In this document: positions 1,882-8,874 of the stretch, in pieces | Layout of the letters: every line of letters starts with the position of its first letter | How positions within the stretch are numbered: position 1 is the stretch's first letter | IMG/VR virus record: IMGVR_UViG_2667527592_000001 | DNA length: 8,874 bases | Strand: one strand, 5' to 3' | From: a virus | Taxonomy: Duplodnaviria; Heunggongvirae; Uroviricota; Caudoviricetes | Made by a program: the position numbers and the translations under genes | The notes under the pieces: generated by a model | What the model was told of the DNA's origin: nothing | The model's input: only the letters and a program-made list of their open reading frames with translations | Databases searched by the model: none

Positions 1882-4800
1882 ATGGGTAAAGGCAGCAGTA
1901 AGGGGCATACCCCGCGCGAAGCGAAGGACAACCTGAAGTCCACGCAGCTGCTGAGTGTGATCGATGCCATCAGCGAAGGGCCGGTTGAAGGTCCGGTGGA
2001 TGGATTAAAAAGCGTGCTGCTGAACAGTACGCCGGTGCTGGACAGTGAGGGGAATACCAATATATCCGGCGTCACGGTGGTGTTCCGGGCAGGTGAGCAG
2101 GAGCAGACTCCGCCGGAGGGATTTGAATCCTCCGGCTCCGAGACGGTGCTGGGTACGGAAGTGAAATATGACACGCCGATCACCCGGACCATCACGTCGG
2201 CAAACATCGACCGACTGCGCCTGACCTTCGGTGTGCAGGCACTGGTGGAAACCACCTCAAAGGGGGACCGGAATCCGTCGGAAGTCCGCCTGCTGGTTCA
2301 GATACAGCGTAATGGTGGCTGGGTGACGGAAAAAGACATCACCATTAAGGGCAAAACCACCTCGCAGTATCTGGCCTCGGTGGTGGTGGATAACCTGCCG
2401 CCGCGCCCGTTTAATATCCGGATGCGCAGAATGACGCCGGACAGCACCACAGACCAGCTGCAGAACAAAACGCTCTGGTCGTCATACACCGAAATCATCG
2501 ATGTGAAACAGTGCTACCCGAACACGGCACTGGTCGGCGTGCAGGTGGATTCGGAACAGTTCGGCAGCCAGCAGGTGAGCCGTAATTATCATCTTCGCGG
2601 GCGTATTCTGCAGGTGCCGTCGAACTATAACCCGCAGACGCGGCAATACAGCGGTATCTGGGACGGAACGTTTAAACCGGCATACAGCAACAACATGGCC
2701 TGGTGTCTGTGGGATATGCTGACCCACCCGCGCTACGGCATGGGGAAACGTCTTGGTGCGGCAGATGTGGATAAATGGGCGCTGTATGTCATCGGCCAGA
2801 ATTGCGACCAGTCAGTGCCGGACGGCTCTGGCGGCACGGAGCCGCGCATCACCTGTAATGCCTACCTGACCACACAGCGCAAGGCGTGGGATGTGCTCAG
2901 CGATTTCTGCTCGGCGATGCGCTGTATGCCGGTATGGAACGGGCAGACGCTGACGTTCGTGCAGGACCGACCGTCGGATAAGGTGTGGACCTATAACCGC
3001 AGTAATGTGGTGATGCCGGATGATGGCGCGCCGTTCCGCTACAGCTTCAGCGCCCTCAAGGACCGCCATAATGCCGTTGAGGTGAACTGGATTGACCCGG
3101 ATAACGGCTGGGAGACGGCGACAGAGCTTGTGGAGGACACGCAGGCCATTCTCCGTTACGGTCGTAACGTCACGAAGATGGATGCCTTTGGCTGTACCAG
3201 CCGGGGGCAGGCACACCGCGCCGGGCTGTGGCTGATTAAAACGGAGCTGCTGGAGACGCAGACCGTGGATTTCAGCGTGGGTGCCGAAGGGCTTCGCCAT
3301 GTGCCGGGTGATGTTATTGAAATCTGCGATGATGACTATGCGGGGATCAGCATCGGCGGGCGCGTGCTGGCGGTGAACAGCCAGACCCGGACGCTGACGC
3401 TCGACCGTGAAATCACGCTGCCATCCTCCGGTACCACGCTGATAAGCCTGGTTGACGGAAGTGGCAATCCGGTCAGCGTGGAGGTCCAGTCCGTCACCGA
3501 CGGCGTGAAGGTAAAAGTGAGCCGTGTTCCTGACGGCGTTGCCGGATACAGCGTATGGGGGCTGAAGTTGCCGACGTTGCGCCAGCGCCTGTTCCGCTGC
3601 GTGAGTATCCGTGAGAACGACGACGGCACGTATGCCATCACCGCCGTGCAGCATGTACCCGAAAAAGAAGCCATCGTGGATAACGGGGCGCACTTTGACG
3701 GCGACCTGAGCGGCACGGTGAATGGCGTCACACCGCCCGCGGTGCAGCACCTGACTGCCGAAGTCACCGCAGACAGCGGGGAATATCAGGTGCTGGCGCG
3801 CTGGGACACGCCGAAGGTGGTGAAGGGGGTGAGCTTCCTGCTTCGCCTGACCGTGGCAGCGGACGATGGCAGTGAGCGGCTGGTCAGTACGGCCAGGACG
3901 ACGGAAACCACATACCGCTTCACGCAACTGGCGCTGGGGAACTACAGGCTGACTGTCCGGGCGGTAAATGCGTGGGGACAGCAGGGCGATCCGGCATCGG
4001 TATCGTTCCGGATTGCCGCACCGGCAGCGCCGTCTCGGATTGAGCTGACACCGGGCTATTTTCAGATAACTGCCACGCCACATCTTGCGGTTTATGACCC
4101 GACGGTACAATTTGAGTTCTGGTTCTCGGAAACGCGGATTACCGATATCAGGCAGGTTGAAACCACAGCCCGCTACCTTGGCACGGGGCTGTACTGGATA
4201 GCCGCCAGTATCAATATCAAACCGGGCCATGATTATTACTTTTATATCCGCAGTGTGAACACCGTTGGCAAATCGGCATTCGTGGAGGCCGTCGGTCGGG
4301 CGAGCGATGATGCGGAAGGTTACCTGGATTTTTTCAAAGGCAAGATAACCGAATCCCATCTTGGTAAAGAGCTGCTGGAAAAAGTCGACCTGACGGAGGA
4401 TAACGCCAGCAAACTGGAGCAGTTTTCGAAAGAGTGGAAGGATGCTAACGATAAGTGGAATGCCATGTGGGGCGTCAAAATTGAGCAGACCAAAGACGGC
4501 AAACATTATGTCGCGGGTATTGGCCTCAGCATGGAGGACACGGAGGAAGGCAAACTGAGCCAGTTTCTGGTTGCCGCCAATCGTATCGCGTTTATTGACC
4601 CGGCAAACGGGAATGAAACGCCGATGTTTGTGGCGCAGGGCAACCAGATATTCATGAACGACGTGTTCCTGAAGCGCCTGACGGCCCCCACCATTACCAG
4701 CGGTGGAAATCCACCGGCATTTTCCCTGACACCGGACGGAAAGCTGACTGCTAAAAATGCGGATATCAGTGGCAGTGTGAATGCGAACTCCGGGACGCTC

Positions 4801-5277
4801 AACAACGTCACGATTAACGAGAACTGTCGGGTTCTGGGAAAACTGTCCGCGAACCAGATTGAAGGCGATCTCGTTAAAACAGTGGGCAAAGCTTTCCCCC
4901 GGGACTCCCGTGCACCGGAACGGTGGCCATCAGGGACCATTACCGTCAGGGTTTATGACGATCAGCCGTTTGACCGGCAGATTGTTATTCCGGCGGTGGC
5001 ATTCAGCGGCGCTAAACATGAGAGAGAGCATACTGATATTTACTCCTCATGCCGTCTGATAGTGCGGAAAAACGGTGCTGAAATTTATAACCGTACCGCG
5101 CTGGATAATACGCTGATTTACAGTGGCGTTATTGATATGCCTGCCGGTCACGGTCACATGACGCTGGAGTTTTCGGTGTCAGCATGGCTGGTAAATGACT
5201 GGTATCCCACAGCAAGTATCAGCGATTTGCTGGTTGTGGTGATGAAGAAAGCCACCGCAGGCATCAGTATCAGCTGA
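1882..5277 (+). CDS. J: Tail tip host specificity protein J (central tail fibre)
   Basis: 1131-codon ORF (lambda gpJ is 1132 aa). N-terminus [34 protein letters not shown]... and long internal stretches match lambda J as I recall it. GGAG at 1871-1874 lies 7 nt upstream of ATG 1882. Stop TGA at 5275-5277. The last ~150 residues are the receptor-binding region. Confidence 0.97.
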
Positions 5278-5344: not shown

Positions 5345-5416
5345 ATGCGTAAAGTTTGTGCAACCATTTTGTCCGCAGCCATCTGTCTGTCCGTATCCGG
5401 TGCGCCTGCATGGGCG
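5345..5416 (+). other. Predicted Sec signal peptide of Lom (24 aa)
   Basis: Positively charged N-terminus (MRK), hydrophobic core (ATILSAAICLSV), and A-W-A before the predicted mature N-terminus SEHQ... Confidence 0.7.
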
Positions 5417-5944
5417 TCTGAACATCAGTCCACACTGAGCGCAGGGTATCTTCATGCCCGTACGAACGCTCCCGGCAGCGATAATCTGAACGGGATTAAC
5501 GTGAAATACCGTTATGAGTTTACGGACACGCTGGGGCTGATTACGTCCTTCAGTTATGCCAATGCTGAGGATGAGCAAAAAACGCACTACAGCGATACCC
5601 GCTGGCATGAAGATTCCGTGCGTAACCGCTGGTTCAGCGTGATGGCGGGGCCGTCTGTACGCGTGAATGAATGGTTCAGCGCGTATGCGATGGCGGGTGT
5701 GGCTTACAGCCGTGTGTCGACTTTCTCCGGGGATTATCTCCGCGTAACTGACAACAAGGGGAAAACGCACGATGTGCTGACCGGAAGTGATGACGGTCGC
5801 CACAGCAACACGTCTCTGGCGTGGGGAGCTGGCGTGCAGTTTAACCCGACCGAATCCGTGGCCGTTGATGTCGCTTATGAAGGCTCCGGCAGCGGTGACT
5901 GGCGTACCAACAGTTTCATCGTGGGTGTCGGTTATAAATTCTGA
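5345..5944 (+). CDS. lom: Lom-like outer membrane beta-barrel protein (Ail/Lom/PagC family)
   Basis: 199-codon ORF with GAGAGG Shine-Dalgarno at 5334-5339, 5 nt before ATG 5345. N-terminal signal peptide MRKVCATILSAAICLSVSGAPAWA with an AWA-S cleavage-type site. Conserved Lom motifs as I recall them: GINVKYRYE, SVMAGP, SAYAMAGVA and the C-terminal AYEGSGSGDWRTNSFIVGVGYKF ending in aromatic F. Same position as lom in lambda (between J and stf). Confidence 0.93.
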   Translation: MRKVCATILSAAICLSVSGAPAWASEHQSTLSAGYLHARTNAPGSDNLNGINVKYRYEFTDTLGLITSFSYANAEDEQKTHYSDTRWHEDSVRNRWFSVMAGPSVRVNEWFSAYAMAGVAYSRVSTFSGDYLRVTDNKGKTHDVLTGSDDGRHSNTSLAWGAGVQFNPTESVAVDVAYEGSGSGDWRTNSFIVGVGYKF

Positions 5945-6008: not shown

Positions 6009-8846
6009 ATGGCAGTACGGATTTCAGGTGTACTGAAAGATGGCGCAGGTAAGCCGATACAAAACTGCACCATTCAGCTAAAGGCCAGGCGCAACAGCAC
6101 CACGGTGGTGGTGAACACAGTGGCCTCAGAAAACCCGGATGAAGCCGGGCGTTACACAATGGACGTCGAGTATGGTCAGTACAGCGTCAGTCTGTTGGTG
6201 GAGGGATTCCCGCCGTCACACGCCGGGATTATCACCGTATATGAGGACTCAAAGCCGGGCACACTGAATGATTTCCTCGGTGCCATGACGGAGGATGATG
6301 TCCGGCCAGAGGCACTGCGCCGTTTTGAACTGATGGTGGAAGAGGTGGCGCGTAACGCGTCCGCAGTGACACAGAACACGGCAGCCGCGAAGAAGTCAGT
6401 CAGCGATGCCAGCACATCAGCCCGTGAGGCGGCAACCCATGCGACTGATGCTGCAGGCTCAGCACGCGCAGCCAGCACGTCAGCCGGACAGGCCGCGACG
6501 TCGGCTCAGTCAGCGTCTTCCAGCGCAGTAACGGCATCAACAAAGGCCACTGAAGCATCAAAAAGTGCTGCCGCTGCAGAGTCCTCAAAAAGCGCGGCGG
6601 CTACCAGTGCCGGTGCGGCGAAAACGTCAGAAACGAATGCGGCAGCGTCACAACAATCAGCAGCCACTTCTGCATCCACCGCGACCACGAAAGCGTCAGA
6701 AGCTGCCTCCTCAGCCCGGGATGCGTCGGCTTCAAAAGAGGCAGCGAAATCATCAGAAACGAACGCATCATCAAGCGCCAGTAGTGCCGCTTCCTCGGCA
6801 ACGGCGGCAGGAAATTCCGCGAAGGCGGCAAAAACGTCCGAGACAAACGCTAGGTCTTCTGAGACGGCAGCGGGACAGAGCGCCTCAGCTGCGGCAGGCT
6901 CAAAAACAGCGGCTGCATCATCTGCCAGCGCCGCGTCAACAAGTGCCGGGCAGGCCTCAGCCAGTGCCACCGCTGCCGGAAAGTCGGCAGAAAGTGCCGC
7001 ATCGTCTGCTTCAACAGCCACAACGAAGGCTGGCGAAGCCACTGAACAGGCCAGTGCAGCAGCGAGGTCTGCTTCCGCAGCGAAGACATCCGAAACGAAC
7101 GCGAAAGCGTCGGAAACCAGCGCAGAATCCTCAAAAACGGCTGCCGCATCGTCAGCCAGTTCGGCGGCGTCATCGGCATCATCGGCGTCTGCTTCAAAAG
7201 ATGAGGCGACCAGACAGGCGTCAGCAGCGAAGAGCAGCGCCACGACGGCATCCACGAAGGCGACAGAGGCTGCTGGCAGTGCGACGGCTGCATCTCAGAG
7301 CAAAGCTGCTGCTGAATCCGCGGCAACGCGTGCCGAAACAGCGGCAAAACGGGCAGAGGATATTGCTGATGCCGTATCTCTGGAAGATGCGAGCACGACG
7401 AAAAAAGGGGTGGTTCAGCTTAGTAGTGCAACCAACAGCACGTCTGAAACACTGGCTGCGACACCGAAAGCGGTTAAGGCGGTAATGGATGAAACAAATA
7501 AGAAAGCCCCATTAAACAGCCCGACGCTGACCGGAACGCCAACAACACCAACTGCGCCAAAGGGTACTAATAATACTCAGATCGCAAGCACGGCTTATGT
7601 GATGGCCGCTATTGCCGCACTTGTAGATTCGTCACCTGATGCACTGAACACGCTGAACGAGCTGGCTGCGGCGCTGGGCAACGACCCGAATTTTGCGACC
7701 ACCATGACTAACGCGCTTGCGGGTAAGCAACCGAAAGATGCCACCCTGACGGCGCTGGCCGGGCTTGCTACTGCGGCAGACAGGTTTCCGTATTTTACGG
7801 GGAATGATGTCGCCAGCCTGGCAACCCTGACAAAAGTCGGGCGGGATATTCTTGCGAAATCGACCATTGCCGCCGTTATCGAATACCTCGGTTTACAGGA
7901 AACGGTAAATCAGGCTTCTGGCGCATTACAGAAAAACCAGAACGGCGCAGATATTCCAGGAAAAGATACCTTCACCAAAAATATTGGTGCCTGCCGCGCA
8001 TATAGCGCATGGCTGAATATTGGTGGCAATAGTCAGGTCTGGACAACCGCGCAATTTATTTCGTGGCTGGAGAGTCAGGGAGCATTTAACCATCCTTACT
8101 GGATGTGCAAAGGCTCATGGGCTTATGCAAACAATAAGGTCATTACAGATACAGGTTGCGGAAATATTTGTCTTGCAGGTGCTGTGGTGGAAGTTATTGG
8201 CACTCGCGGCGCAATGACCATACGCGTTACTACTCCGAGTACGTCCAGCGGCGGCGGAATCACTAACGCTCAATTCACTTATATTAATCATGGTGATGCT
8301 TATGCTCCTGGCTGGCGAAGAGACTACAATACGAAAAACCAGCAGCCTGCATTTGCTTTAGGGCAAACAGGAAGCAGGGTTGCAAATGATAAAGCTGTTG
8401 GCTGGAACTGGAATAGCGGCGTTTATGATGCAGATATCAGTGGTGCATCGACATTAATCCTCCACTTTAATATGAATGCGGGGAGTTGCCCTGCTGTACA
8501 GTTCCGCGTGAATTATAAGAACGGCGGTATTTTTTATCGTTCAGCGCGTGATGGTTATGGCTTTGAAGCTAACTGGTCAGAGTTTTACACCACAACCCGC
8601 AAACCCTCTGCGGGAGATGTTGGTGCATATACGCAGGCAGAATGTAACTCAAGGTTTATTACAGGTATTCGCCTTGGCGGTCTGTCATCTGTTCAGACAT
8701 GGAATGGTCCCGGCTGGTCTGACAGGTCAGGTTATGTCGTTACGGGTTCAGTTAACGGAAACCGTGATGAATTAATTGATACAACTCAGGCAAGGCCAAT
8801 TCAGTATTGCATTAATGGAACGTGGTATAACGCGGGGAGTATTTAA
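6009..8846 (+). CDS. stf: Side tail fibre protein (Stf-like): lambda-Stf-like N-terminus, long Ala/Ser/Thr-rich repeat shaft, conserved fibre motif, distinct C-terminal tip
   Basis: 945-codon uninterrupted ORF; ATG 6009 is preceded by a G-run at 5997-6005. N-terminus MAVRISGVLKDGAGKPIQNCTIQLKARRNSTTVVVNTV...DEAGRYTMDVEYGQYSV matches the lambda Stf N-terminus as I recall it. KGVVQLSSATNSTSETLAATPKAVKAVMDETNKKAPL (nt ~7404-7508) is a motif shared by several tail-fibre proteins. Stop TAA at 8844-8846. Confidence 0.93.
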   Translation: MAVRISGVLKDGAGKPIQNCTIQLKARRNSTTVVVNTVASENPDEAGRYTMDVEYGQYSVSLLVEGFPPSHAGIITVYEDSKPGTLNDFLGAMTEDDVRPEALRRFELMVEEVARNASAVTQNTAAAKKSVSDASTSAREAATHATDAAGSARAASTSAGQAATSAQSASSSAVTASTKATEASKSAAAAESSKSAAATSAGAAKTSETNAAASQQSAATSASTATTKASEAASSARDASASKEAAKSSETNASSSASSAASSATAAGNSAKAAKTSETNARSSETAAGQSASAAAGSKTAAASSASAASTSAGQASASATAAGKSAESAASSASTATTKAGEATEQASAAARSASAAKTSETNAKASETSAESSKTAAASSASSAASSASSASASKDEATRQASAAKSSATTASTKATEAAGSATAASQSKAAAESAATRAETAAKRAEDIADAVSLEDASTTKKGVVQLSSATNSTSETLAATPKAVKAVMDETNKKAPLNSPTLTGTPTTPTAPKGTNNTQIASTAYVMAAIAALVDSSPDALNTLNELAAALGNDPNFATTMTNALAGKQPKDATLTALAGLATAADRFPYFTGNDVASLATLTKVGRDILAKSTIAAVIEYLGLQETVNQASGALQKNQNGADIPGKDTFTKNIGACRAYSAWLNIGGNSQVWTTAQFISWLESQGAFNHPYWMCKGSWAYANNKVITDTGCGNICLAGAVVEVIGTRGAMTIRVTTPSTSSGGGITNAQFTYINHGDAYAPGWRRDYNTKNQQPAFALGQTGSRVANDKAVGWNWNSGVYDADISGASTLILHFNMNAGSCPAVQFRVNYKNGGIFYRSARDGYGFEANWSEFYTTTRKPSAGDVGAYTQAECNSRFITGIRLGGLSSVQTWNGPGWSDRSGYVVTGSVNGNRDELIDTTQARPIQYCINGTWYNAGSI
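6340..7375 (+). repeat. Low-complexity, imperfectly repeated Ala/Ser/Thr-rich tract inside stf, including four copies of a ~24-27-nt unit encoding A-K-(T/S)-S-E-T-N-A
   Basis: Units begin at ~6618 (gcgaaaacgtcagaaacgaatgcggca), ~6744 (gcgaaatcatcagaaacgaacgcatca), ~6828 (gcaaaaacgtccgagacaaacgct) and ~7080 (gcgaagacatccgaaacgaacgcgaaa), all in the stf frame with synonymous and near-synonymous differences. Related units such as TSAGQA and KSAAA also recur. Confidence 0.85.
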
Positions 8847-8848
8847 TT

Positions 8849-8874
8849 ATGATGCACTTAAAAAATATTACTGC
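8849..8874 (+). CDS. tfa: Start of a probable tail fibre assembly (chaperone) gene, 3'-truncated by the window edge
   Basis: ATGATG at 8849-8854 lies 2 nt after the stf stop, with GGGGAG at 8834-8839 as a possible Shine-Dalgarno. It opens a frame reading MMHLKNIT to the window end. The position matches lambdoid stf-tfa arrangement and the N-terminal peptide resembles Tfa-family starts as I recall them. Only 8 codons are visible. Confidence 0.5.

Follow-up and report, generated by a model that had tools for sequence, protein, structure and literature searches.

A probable Mu G-type invertible host-range cassette at the distal end of a lambda-type side tail fibre gene

The side tail fibre gene (stf) of the analysed window, a stretch of 8,874 nucleotides that constitutes a whole draft contig, very probably contains the left crossover site of a Mu G-type invertible host-range cassette built on a lambda-type fibre. 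The site occupies positions 7876-7901 and coincides with the place at which a lambda-type shaft passes into a Mu S'-type receptor-binding tip. In relatives of this element a 3.05-kb segment demonstrably inverts, and the left boundary of that segment is the equivalent of the site at 7876-7901.

The mosaic joint in stf

The genes preceding stf are arranged in the order L-K-I-J-lom-stf, the same as in lambda. By exact-protein look-up, the Stf protein is on record only in GCA_000948835.1, on the single contig JXWE01000049.1. The features identified in the window, all on the plus strand, are as follows.

6009-8846, plus strand: stf side tail fibre gene, 945 aa, a single ORF across the joint, preceded by J and lom, an arrangement shared with lambda
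6009-6410, plus strand: prophage tail fibre N-terminal domain, aa 1-134 (PF08400, E = 1.8e-70, profile positions 1-134 of 134)
6411-7418, plus strand: Ala/Ser/Thr-rich shaft, aa 135-470, GC about 0.60, delimited by composition
7419-7889, plus strand: distal section of the constant, lambda-type fibre, ending at the crossover point, delimited by homology to lambda
7870-7914, plus strand: extended inverted-repeat arm, inverted match to positions 10952-10909 of relative L001 (91%)
7876-7901, plus strand: 26-bp Gin/Cin-type crossover site, TTATCGAATACC-TC-GGTTTACAGGAA, central dinucleotide at 7888-7889, encoding (V)IEYLGLQE
7890-8846, plus strand: receptor-binding tip, aa 628-945, Mu S'/P7 Sv type, GC 0.467, assigned by nucleotide and amino acid identity and a PDB match
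8634-8840, plus strand: C-terminal stretch common to the alternative tips (…PIQYCINGTWYN…), assigned by its match to Mu S and by repeat I3
8849-8874, plus strand: start of a tail fibre assembly chaperone gene of Mu U' type, 26 nt (8 codons and 2 nt), identical to Mu U'

Two features place the gene product among the lambda-type Stf proteins; (i) the PF08400 N-terminus; (ii) its place in a lambdoid tail module, directly following J and lom. The nucleotide identity to lambda stf is 85% over 6009-6916 and 77% over 7222-7891 (lambda 20548-21216), and the homology stops at 7891. The shaft is composed of 36% A, 25% S and 12% T, is devoid of W, Y and C, and differs in length between relatives, in three of which (L011, L007 and L008) stf measures 2319-3102 nt. 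Annotation pipelines name the stf product only "prophage tail fiber N-terminal domain-containing protein".

The original prediction, made from the letters of the DNA, placed a mosaic joint at about nt 7890, the first base after the central dinucleotide of the crossover site, and judged by eye that the sequence beyond it is richer in AT. Both calls agree with the computed values. The GC content is 0.582 for 6009-7889 and 0.467 for 7890-8846 (GC3 0.536 versus 0.401), and the composition of stf falls into two segments instead of being uniform. A two-segment likelihood scan sets the change-point at 7846-7877 with an LLR of 20.4, compared with a maximum of 10.7 among 500 block shuffles. Homology to Mu starts at 7873, and the reading frame remains open straight through the joint in the ORF list. 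The mosaic joint is thereby confirmed. It is, however, more than the scar of a past horizontal exchange, being a Gin/Cin-type crossover site. The earlier mosaic reading was thus right about a foreign tip and a chaperone and incomplete in two respects, the tip being already known and the joint being a crossover site. In the preferred reading, the outer half-site is where the constant part of stf terminates, and the cassette comprises the inner half-site together with the DNA downstream.

The tip (aa 628-945) had been described as rich in Gly, Asn, Trp and Tyr with several Cys, which its composition bears out: G 12.9%, N 8.8%, W 3.8%, Y 4.7% and C 2.2% (seven Cys). It had also been described as unlike the C-terminus of lambda Stf, and a lambda-type receptor-binding C-terminus was indeed not found in Stf, the best BLASTP hit of the tip against lambda orf-314 having E = 1.2. 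The domain itself is a familiar one. All 318 of 318 residues align colinearly with Mu S' (PDB 8JU3, 8ju3_A; E = 1.1e-214, 96.5% protein identity, 11 substitutions), and at the nucleotide level the identity amounts to 95.7% with Mu S', counted from 7873, and to 98.0% with P7 Sv, counted from 7920, where the core common to P7 and P1 begins; beyond residue 10 the tip differs from P7 Sv in one amino acid. The closest tip, with two amino acid differences, is found in a chromosomal relative. On these identities the tip is assigned to the Mu S'/P7 Sv module, which is well studied and has a solved structure. It also matches PHROG tail fibre families. The Pfam search of Stf returned no family for the tip, and no NCBIfam family was obtained for Stf or Tfa; both results are uninformative rather than negative. 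The stretch at 8634-8840 matches residues 433-503 of Mu S (PDB 5yvq, E = 4e-7) and, in L001, repeat I3 connects it with the end of the silent tip. It is probably the chaperone-dependent folding end, with a role that would involve Tfa.

A receptor specificity different from that of lambda Stf had been proposed, and the foreign origin of the tip and its Mu S'/P7 Sv type support this. Mu switches between G(+) and G(-) forms with different hosts (PMC4406740), and the similarity of the tip suggests a Mu G(-)-like receptor. The virion side fibres would then have a Mu G(-)-like, LPS-directed specificity, for hosts such as E. coli C, Shigella sonnei, Citrobacter and Enterobacter. The exact receptor is nevertheless not readable from 96.5% identity, since SfMu carries an S' that is 96% identical and uses the S. 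flexneri O-antigen, whereas Mu G(-) forms no plaques on S. flexneri (PMC4406740).

The stop codon of stf (TAA, 8844-8846) is separated by 2 nt from the ATG at 8849. The start found there agrees with the predicted cognate chaperone gene, as MMHLKNIT corresponds to the first eight residues of Mu U' and the last 34 nt of the window are identical to Mu. Full-length tfa homologues in relatives encode 177 aa and match PF02413 (Caudo_TAP, E = 2e-36). The contig breaks off at 8874, 26 nt into tfa, and both of its ends lie inside repeats. It passes through the crossover site in a single orientation, which excludes an even mix of both orientations in the culture that was sequenced.

The crossover site and inversion in relatives

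The site at 7876-7901 consists of two imperfect 12-bp inverted half-sites flanking a 2-bp core, and is located inside the fibre ORF at the boundary of the constant and variable parts. In comparison with both Mu gix sites, 24 of the 26 positions are equal and two differ. In the same alignment, the annotated boundaries of the Mu G segment and of P7 fall on site positions 13/14, and the T at site position 9 is also present in the annotated P7 cixR (AATACC variant). No other match occurs within the window, and none of 200 shuffles gave any match. The inverted-repeat arm at 7870-7914 corresponds to repeat pair I2 in L001 (38 nt, 92% complementary), with its partner about 3 kb downstream in relatives. 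At the homologous place lambda has a good outer half-site, TTCTTGAATACC, and a degenerate inner half.

In all ten relatives examined with this junction, tfa is succeeded by a tfa' in inverted orientation, then by a silent S-type tip that is likewise inverted, a second inverted site and finally a gene for an invertase. The layout, with the silent tip lacking its 5' end and followed by the second site and a recombinase gene, is shared by L001, L005/L012, L007, L008, L009 and L010 and also by L011, L013, L014, L015 and L016. In all examined relatives the second site lies about 3.05 kb downstream of the left one; beyond the end of the contig it would be expected on the minus strand as TTATC(T/C)AAAACCTCGGTTTACAGGAA. 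The GC content of the segment is 0.452 in the relatives and 0.452 in the Mu G segment, and tfa and tfa' form an inverted repeat of 161 nt (75%) in the relatives. The recombinase gene occurs in two forms: an N15-like plasmid prophage has an intact invertase of 184 aa with PF00239 and PF02796, and in nine chromosomal prophages gin is a 64-codon stub with PF00239 only and without the DNA-binding domain. The stub is identical to Mu gin at 186 of 192 nt, the first 110 nt being equal. The stub class comprises 535 of 5,426 complete E. coli genomes (about 10%), compared with 34 genomes of the intact class. Collinearity with the whole window (95.3%) is seen for the N15-like record alone, and no record exceeds about 96% identity to the window.

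The window's own junction is present in 126 complete genomes, in which stf is a single annotated CDS, and the flipped arrangement in 315. The two orientations differ at the left site, where the junction reads ...GGAAACGGTAAATCAGG when the S' tip is joined and ...GGAAACGGTAAACAGGG when the S tip is joined, and the window site is identical, base for base, to the left site of the flipped relatives. In silico inversion of the segment of strain C2 yields an in-frame, full-length Stf, and at least seven complete genomes contain the junction so predicted, with 926 nt matching at 100% identity.

The most direct evidence for inversion comes from strains ES1 and ES6, whose upstream flanks differ by two mismatches in 9.5 kb and whose segments lie in opposite orientations. 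Between the crossover points there are zero substitutions, the outer half-sites have not moved, and the crossover interval is the equivalent of window positions 7885-7909. With six mismatches in 3,087 bp (Poisson P = 0.009), the segment as a whole had appeared more diverged than the flanks, an observation that would point to replacement; this was rejected, as all six mismatches lie in the non-moving outer half-sites. Orientation is furthermore independent of the phylogeny of the flanks, ES1 being nearer to flipped strains than to strains of its own orientation.

With the segment of the relatives inverting at the equivalent of 7876-7901, exchange of tip and chaperone takes place through programmed inversion in addition to horizontal transfer. 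The proposal that they are exchanged as a unit therefore stands insofar as the module moves together, and is to be extended by programmed inversion, seen as a clean flip in ES1/ES6.

The proposed cassette and its alternatives

In the orientation captured by the contig, the fibre ORF runs into the Mu S'/P7 Sv-type tip, and the U'-type chaperone comes next. The missing downstream DNA is predicted to contain an inverted U-type chaperone gene, an inverted, promoterless and 5'-less S-type tip, the second inverted site, and an invertase gene or stub. Strand exchange at the central TC would be catalysed by a serine invertase of the Gin/Pin/Cin family together with Fis, bound to an enhancer that the invertase gene carries at its 5' end, and inversion of about 3.05 kb would join the alternative tip in frame. 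PMC3798978, citing Kahmann 1985, describes 26-bp sites and a Fis enhancer inside the invertase gene. By analogy with the relatives, this particular genome would be expected to hold the complete cassette and may continue to flip it.

One alternative is a frozen fossil: long ago, a Mu/P1-type tip would have been grafted onto a lambdoid stf, by an invertase or illegitimately, and the joint would be the resulting scar, with the segment fixed here as a chimeric fibre gene and the partner site or a competent invertase missing. That such sites decay is seen in lambda, whose relic retains a good outer half-site next to a degenerate inner half; most relatives have the gin stub alone, and the contig shows a single orientation. 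However, the window site shares every base with the left site of prophages whose flip is so recent that no substitution separates them in about 3 kb, the second site and the silent tip are kept in all ten relatives examined with the junction, and orientation does not follow flank phylogeny (ES1). A fossil is thus considered unlikely. The chance is extremely small that the joint is an assembly artefact, a draft chimera in which a lambdoid stf was connected to a Mu-, P1- or P2-like prophage tip via the shared 26-45-bp repeat, the organism itself having no such gene. The contig is short, draft and bounded by repeats at both ends, and several copies of the module are frequent in E. coli, yet the ORF is in frame across the joint, region 7850-7935 differs from strain C2 at only two bases, and misassembly at a short repeat was rejected on the presence of the junction in the 126 complete genomes. 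E. coli genomes often have several copies of tip modules, in up to 13 places per genome.

The orientation differences among the relatives could also have another origin, either RecA-dependent recombination at short inverted repeats or replacement by another prophage copy. In favour of this, the stub-class prophages have no invertase of their own and a 38-45-bp inverted repeat is present. That repeat is, however, short and its two arms agree at only 92%, the 161-nt tfa/tfa' repeat (75%), although longer, is unused as a breakpoint, and the breakpoints are confined to 25 bp with the canonical crossover dinucleotide at the centre and unmoved outer half-sites. The flip is clean, with no conversion tracts, and unlinked Pin-family invertases have been shown by experiment to invert e14 in trans (PMC12529663). 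Such an origin is accordingly judged very improbable, and site-specific inversion of the cassette is retained as the preferred reading.

Since the adjacent gin is a stub in nine chromosomal relatives, inversion there would need another invertase in the cell. It is conceivable, though on balance doubtful, that lambdoid prophages of the stub class keep both sites and the enhancer-bearing 5' end of gin, that they flip via invertases encoded elsewhere, and that the window belongs to this class. The enzymes supplied in trans would be Pin of e14, Qin or Rac, Gin of Mu or Cin of P1. If this is true, the switch of host range now exists as an "orphan" cis-element, which selection retains and which relies on the resident mobilome. 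The element of the window may be either of the chromosomal stub class or an N15-like plasmid prophage with an intact invertase. Mild novelty attaches only to the continued flipping of stub-only segments, presumably by an invertase acting in trans.

Comparison with known invertible segments

The finding is a modest extension of known biology and represents no new kind of system. Once the gix site and the S' identity are recognised, a silent alternative tip and a specificity directed at LPS can be predicted, as can a likely break in the assembly. The stub-only cassette, widespread and recently flipped in near-isogenic strains, would offer a convenient natural system for the study of trans-acting invertases and enhancer retention. 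The host-range switch itself is of the kind described for Mu G, P1 C and e14 P, and the tip, chaperone, site and mechanism are textbook.

The closest counterpart is the G segment of Mu (S/U versus S'/U', gix, Gin, sis enhancer). The tip is 96.5% identical at the amino acid level, the start of the chaperone is identical, as are the inner half-site and the adjacent 8 nt, and the site is placed inside the fibre ORF; the relatives agree with Mu in layout, in size (about 3.05 kb) and in the gin stub (186/192 nt). In contrast to Mu, a myovirus with a constant part formed by the 170-aa Sc, the constant part is here a 627-aa lambda-type fibre of a siphovirus, the outer half-site is lambda-like (TTATCGAATACC), and gin is cut after codon 64 in most relatives. 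The C segment of P1/P7 (Sv/Sv', U/U', cix, Cin) has the core 7920-8846 in common (98% nt to P7 Sv), as well as the AATACC half-site of P7 cixR. Its crossover site, however, lies about 640 nt further upstream of the tip core, giving P1/P7 a longer variable part, and its inner half-site is of cix type (GGTTTAAGAGAA) instead of the gix type.

The P segment of e14 in E. coli K-12 (stfP/stfE, tfaE/tfaP, pinE) likewise swaps the 3' end of a lambdoid stf together with tfa by a Pin-family serine invertase. Its inversion can also be driven in trans by the invertase of another prophage, as with PinQ (Qin and Rac encode PinQ and PinR), and both orientations are common in sequenced genomes (PMC12529663, PMC4272514). 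The differences relate to the tips, the site sequence (e14 repeat TTGGTTTGGGAGAAGG), the segment length (1.8 kb in e14) and the invertase, e14 keeping its own pinE whereas most relatives here have a stub. With the Stf/Tfa of lambda (Ur-lambda side tail fibres) the window shares the position after J and lom, PF08400, the Ala/Ser shaft and, as far as ...EYLG, the distal shaft (77-85% nt). The last 318 aa (E = 1.2) are unrelated to lambda, as is the chaperone, and the crossover site of lambda is half decayed.

The joint between shaft and tip

The window corresponds to JXWE01000049.1 (assembly GCA_000948835.1), a complete draft contig of 8,874 bp which starts inside L and ends 26 nt into the chaperone gene tfa. 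Its features are as follows.

Features of the window
5' of J: L 3' end, then K and I, lambdoid tail module
1882-5277: J, lambdoid tail module
5345-5944: lom, between J and stf
6009-8846: stf (side tail fibre), 945 aa, 3' of lom
7876-7901: crossover site, TTATCGAATACC-TC-GGTTTACAGGAA, encoding (V)IEYLGLQE
8849-8874: tfa, first 26 nt only, the contig ending inside the gene

No match to the tail module above about 96% identity was found among the complete E. coli genomes, phages and plasmids in the collections; divergence of that level (best about 96%) is usual for mosaic lambdoid prophages. Both contig ends are multi-copy sequence in E. coli, with up to 13 stf/tfa-related places per genome, so the breaks are probably due to repeats. 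Since the contig is not broken at the gix site, the two orientations were not equally frequent in the sequenced culture.

Within stf, the GC content falls from 0.582 (6009-7889) to 0.467 (7890-8846), and GC3 from 0.536 to 0.401 over the same intervals. A two-segment likelihood scan located the change-point at 7846-7877 with an LLR of 20.4, against a maximum of 10.7 in 500 block shuffles, which bears out the GC shift of the original prediction. The shaft is composed mainly of Ala (36%), Ser (25%) and Thr (12%) and lacks Trp, Tyr and Cys, whereas the tip (Stf aa 628-945) is, as had been proposed, rich in Gly, Asn, Trp and Tyr and contains seven Cys. The tip was also expected to be unlike the lambda Stf C-terminus, and indeed BLASTP detected no similarity between the two (best E = 1.2); DNA homology to lambda stf covers 6009-6916 (85%) and 7222-7891 (77%), with none beyond 7891. 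The predicted gene start 2 nt past stf was confirmed as an ATG at 8849, following the stop codon at 8844-8846.

The end of lambda homology at 7891, the start of Mu homology at 7873 and the GC change-point just upstream all converge on the 26-bp crossover site at 7876-7901. The joint, predicted at about 7890, was correctly placed, that position being the first base past the central dinucleotide. Both gix sites of Mu read TTATCCAAAACC-TC-GGTTTACAGGAA, with the annotated G-segment boundary at positions 13/14 of the 26-mer; the annotated P7 cixR is TTATCCAATACC-TT-GGTTTAAGAGAA, has its crossover likewise at positions 13/14, and shares the AATACC variant with the window's site. The degenerate site pattern gave a single hit in the window and no hit in 200 shuffles. 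The outer half-site of the window is lambda-like, and the inner half-site together with the next 8 nt is identical to Mu. At the same place lambda (L003 8202-8227, lambda ~21201-21226) carries the outer half TTCTTGAATACC, which is close to the hix half-site, then a decayed inner half, TT GGGGCCGGTGAG. The lambda stf site looks like a relic crossover site, located exactly where lambda and the window diverge.

The shaft itself is variable. A second mosaic breakpoint lies at about 7470-7480: 2H10, PhiR30_1, Turner, mEp460 and many other lambdoid phages and plasmid prophages match the window only as far as this point, indicating that the distal shaft (7480-7889) is itself an exchangeable block. 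The length of the Ala/Ser/Thr-rich part (6411-7418) differs among close relatives, including the E. coli prophages L007, L008 and L011 (stf of 2319, 2838, 2970 and 3102 nt); indels in this low-complexity region apparently account for the differences. Two long ORFs overlap the Ala-rich shaft, at 6506-7255 (minus strand, 249 aa) and 6565-7485 (plus strand, other frame, 306 aa); the public record calls a 245-aa antisense gene here, with no Pfam hit, and lambda has the annotated antisense orf206b at the equivalent place. These ORFs most likely arise as a side effect of a codon composition rich in GCN.

Origin of the tip and its predicted receptor specificity

The segment 7890-8874 has 96% nucleotide identity with the S'/U' arm of the G segment in Mu, and likewise with D108, SfMu and P88; from 7920 on, its identity with the Sv/Ua arm of the C segment in P7 is 98%. 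All 318 tip residues align with PDB 8JU3 ("Tail fiber protein S, Tail fiber protein S'"; E = 1.1e-214), which a figure legend of PMC11821841 gives as Mu gp52. Over its final ~70 residues the tip also aligns with S, the second of the two Mu tips (PDB 5YVQ, E = 4e-7), and this conserved C-terminal end common to the alternative tips is the repeat I3. The last 34 nt of the window, with the S' stop and the beginning of U', are the same as in Mu; MMHLKNIT, predicted to begin a tail fibre assembly chaperone, proved to be the U' N-terminus. The compositional step at the joint is explained by the GC content of the Mu G segment, 0.452, which equals that of the corresponding segment of the window's relatives (0.452).

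The tip differs from Mu S' by 11 substitutions, clustered at tip residues 163-197, and from P7 Sv, beyond residue 10, by a single one. At this cluster (8376-8480; Stf aa 790-824) the S' tip has two allelic forms: T, G, N, N, G/V, T in Mu and pZ1323HEC0355-3, and R, A, D, D, S, A in the window, P7 and WS1933D. The cluster may form a loop that contacts the receptor.

In the orientation present in the contig, the side fibre would bear a Mu G(-)-type tip, folded with a U'-type chaperone. The receptor specificity we infer for it stops short of an exact receptor, since SfMu has a 96%-identical S' and yet uses the S. flexneri O-antigen, on a host where Mu G(-) forms no plaques (PMC4406740); at residues 163-197, moreover, the window's tip differs from that of Mu and agrees with P7.

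Inversion of the cassette in relatives

The relatives examined were C2, WS1933D, H10407, 503025, ES1, PSS-16 and plasmid pZ1323HEC0355-3, which share the window's junction, and the flipped PEC1003, ETEC6, ES6 and PSS-13. All show one downstream layout.

Locus beyond the tip in the relatives
Directly after the tip: U'-type tfa, 177 aa, PF02413
Next, inverted: U-type tfa, 174 aa, PF02413
Then, inverted: S-type tip, 5'-less
Past the silent tip, inverted, minus strand: second crossover site TTATCTAAAACCTCGGTTTACAGGAA
Past the second site: recombinase gene, outward-reading
That gene in L001 (11001-11195, adjoining the cassette) and its equivalents in L007-L011 and L013-L016 (E. coli prophages): gin stub

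By analogy, the window's locus beyond 8874 presumably holds the second site, the silent tip and an invertase gene, whole or as a stub.

When C2 was inverted in silico at the central dinucleotide, the S-type tip became fused in frame, yielding a full-length Stf, and at least seven complete genomes contain the predicted flipped junction with 100% identity across 926 nt. At coverage of at least 80%, 315 genomes carry the flipped arrangement and 126 that of the window. Aligned with ETEC6 and PEC1003, where the chromosomal site is the same, C2 has collinear flanks and an inverted block of 3,087 bp at 99.7%. The cleanest pair is ES1 (window orientation) and ES6 (flipped), isolates of one frog-farm study; over 9.5 kb of upstream flank they have 2 mismatches, and over 6.4 kb of downstream flank 7. 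Within their inverted block, all six "mismatches" fall in the unmoved outer half-sites, and no difference separates the two strains from one crossover point to the other; the crossover thus occurred within the equivalent of 7885-7909, which includes the central TC. Flipped strains resemble ES1 more closely (99.9%) than do the other strains of its own orientation (95.6-98.3%), and the gin truncation is common to both orientations, so flipping is recent, recurrent and later than the shared truncation.

In the flipped strains ES6, PSS-13, ETEC6 and PEC1003 (L009, L010, L014, L016), stf is annotated as incomplete or a pseudogene, and the cassette thus flipped in prophages whose fibre gene was already broken. 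The upstream ES6/ES1 alignment has one gap, which would explain a shaft frameshift.

Two classes of invertase locus accompany the cassette. One record alone, pZ1323HEC0355-3 (L005/L012, NZ_CP148365.1; 45.9 kb), with a lambda-type tail module and the same invertible cassette, is collinear with the window over its full length (95.3%); its sopA/parB and protelomerase genes identify it as an N15-like plasmid prophage (linear plasmid). It encodes an intact serine invertase of 184 aa (PF00239, PF02796; 54% identity to Gin), an arrangement present in 34 genomes, in records of ~39-50 kb. The chromosomal prophages retain only the first 64 codons of gin (186 of 192 nt as in Mu), fused to a tfa fragment; the same fusion point occurs in 535 of 5,426 complete E. 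coli genomes, in prophages at several integration sites, next to bioA, potB or yciE. The first 110 nt of the stub equal Mu gin exactly and span the homologue of the enhancer annotated in cin (nt 19-86 of that gene), ~70-140 bp from the right site. A passage of PMC3798978, citing Kahmann et al. 1985, describes an enhancer of ~60-65 bp that is bound by Fis, lies within the invertase gene and is ~100 bp away from one of the sites, and the position of the candidate enhancer fits this arrangement.

The simplest reading is that flips of the stub class are catalysed in trans by another Gin/Pin/Cin-family invertase of the cell. The e14 P segment is inverted in trans by PinQ of Qin (PMC12529663), and in cultures of E. 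coli, inversions affecting the tail fibres of prophages are easily detected (PMC4272514). From the relatives we infer that the switch is active in the window's own genome too.

Comparison with known invertible fibre systems

The window's switch is of the same kind as Mu G, P1 C and e14 P. That invertases associated with stf drive the exchange of tips between unrelated phages was proposed long ago, a passage of PMC3945230 crediting the idea to Sandmeier 1994 and Haggard-Ljungquist 1992, and e14 is already known as a lambdoid prophage with an invertible stf end. It is a tentative and mildly novel suggestion that the cassette may be an orphan which still flips in dependence on an invertase supplied in trans. 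The layout downstream of the tip in the relatives is that of Mu G. Specific to the window is that a long shaft of lambda type is united with a Mu G cassette that is almost unchanged, a combination further joined, in most relatives, by the gin stub.
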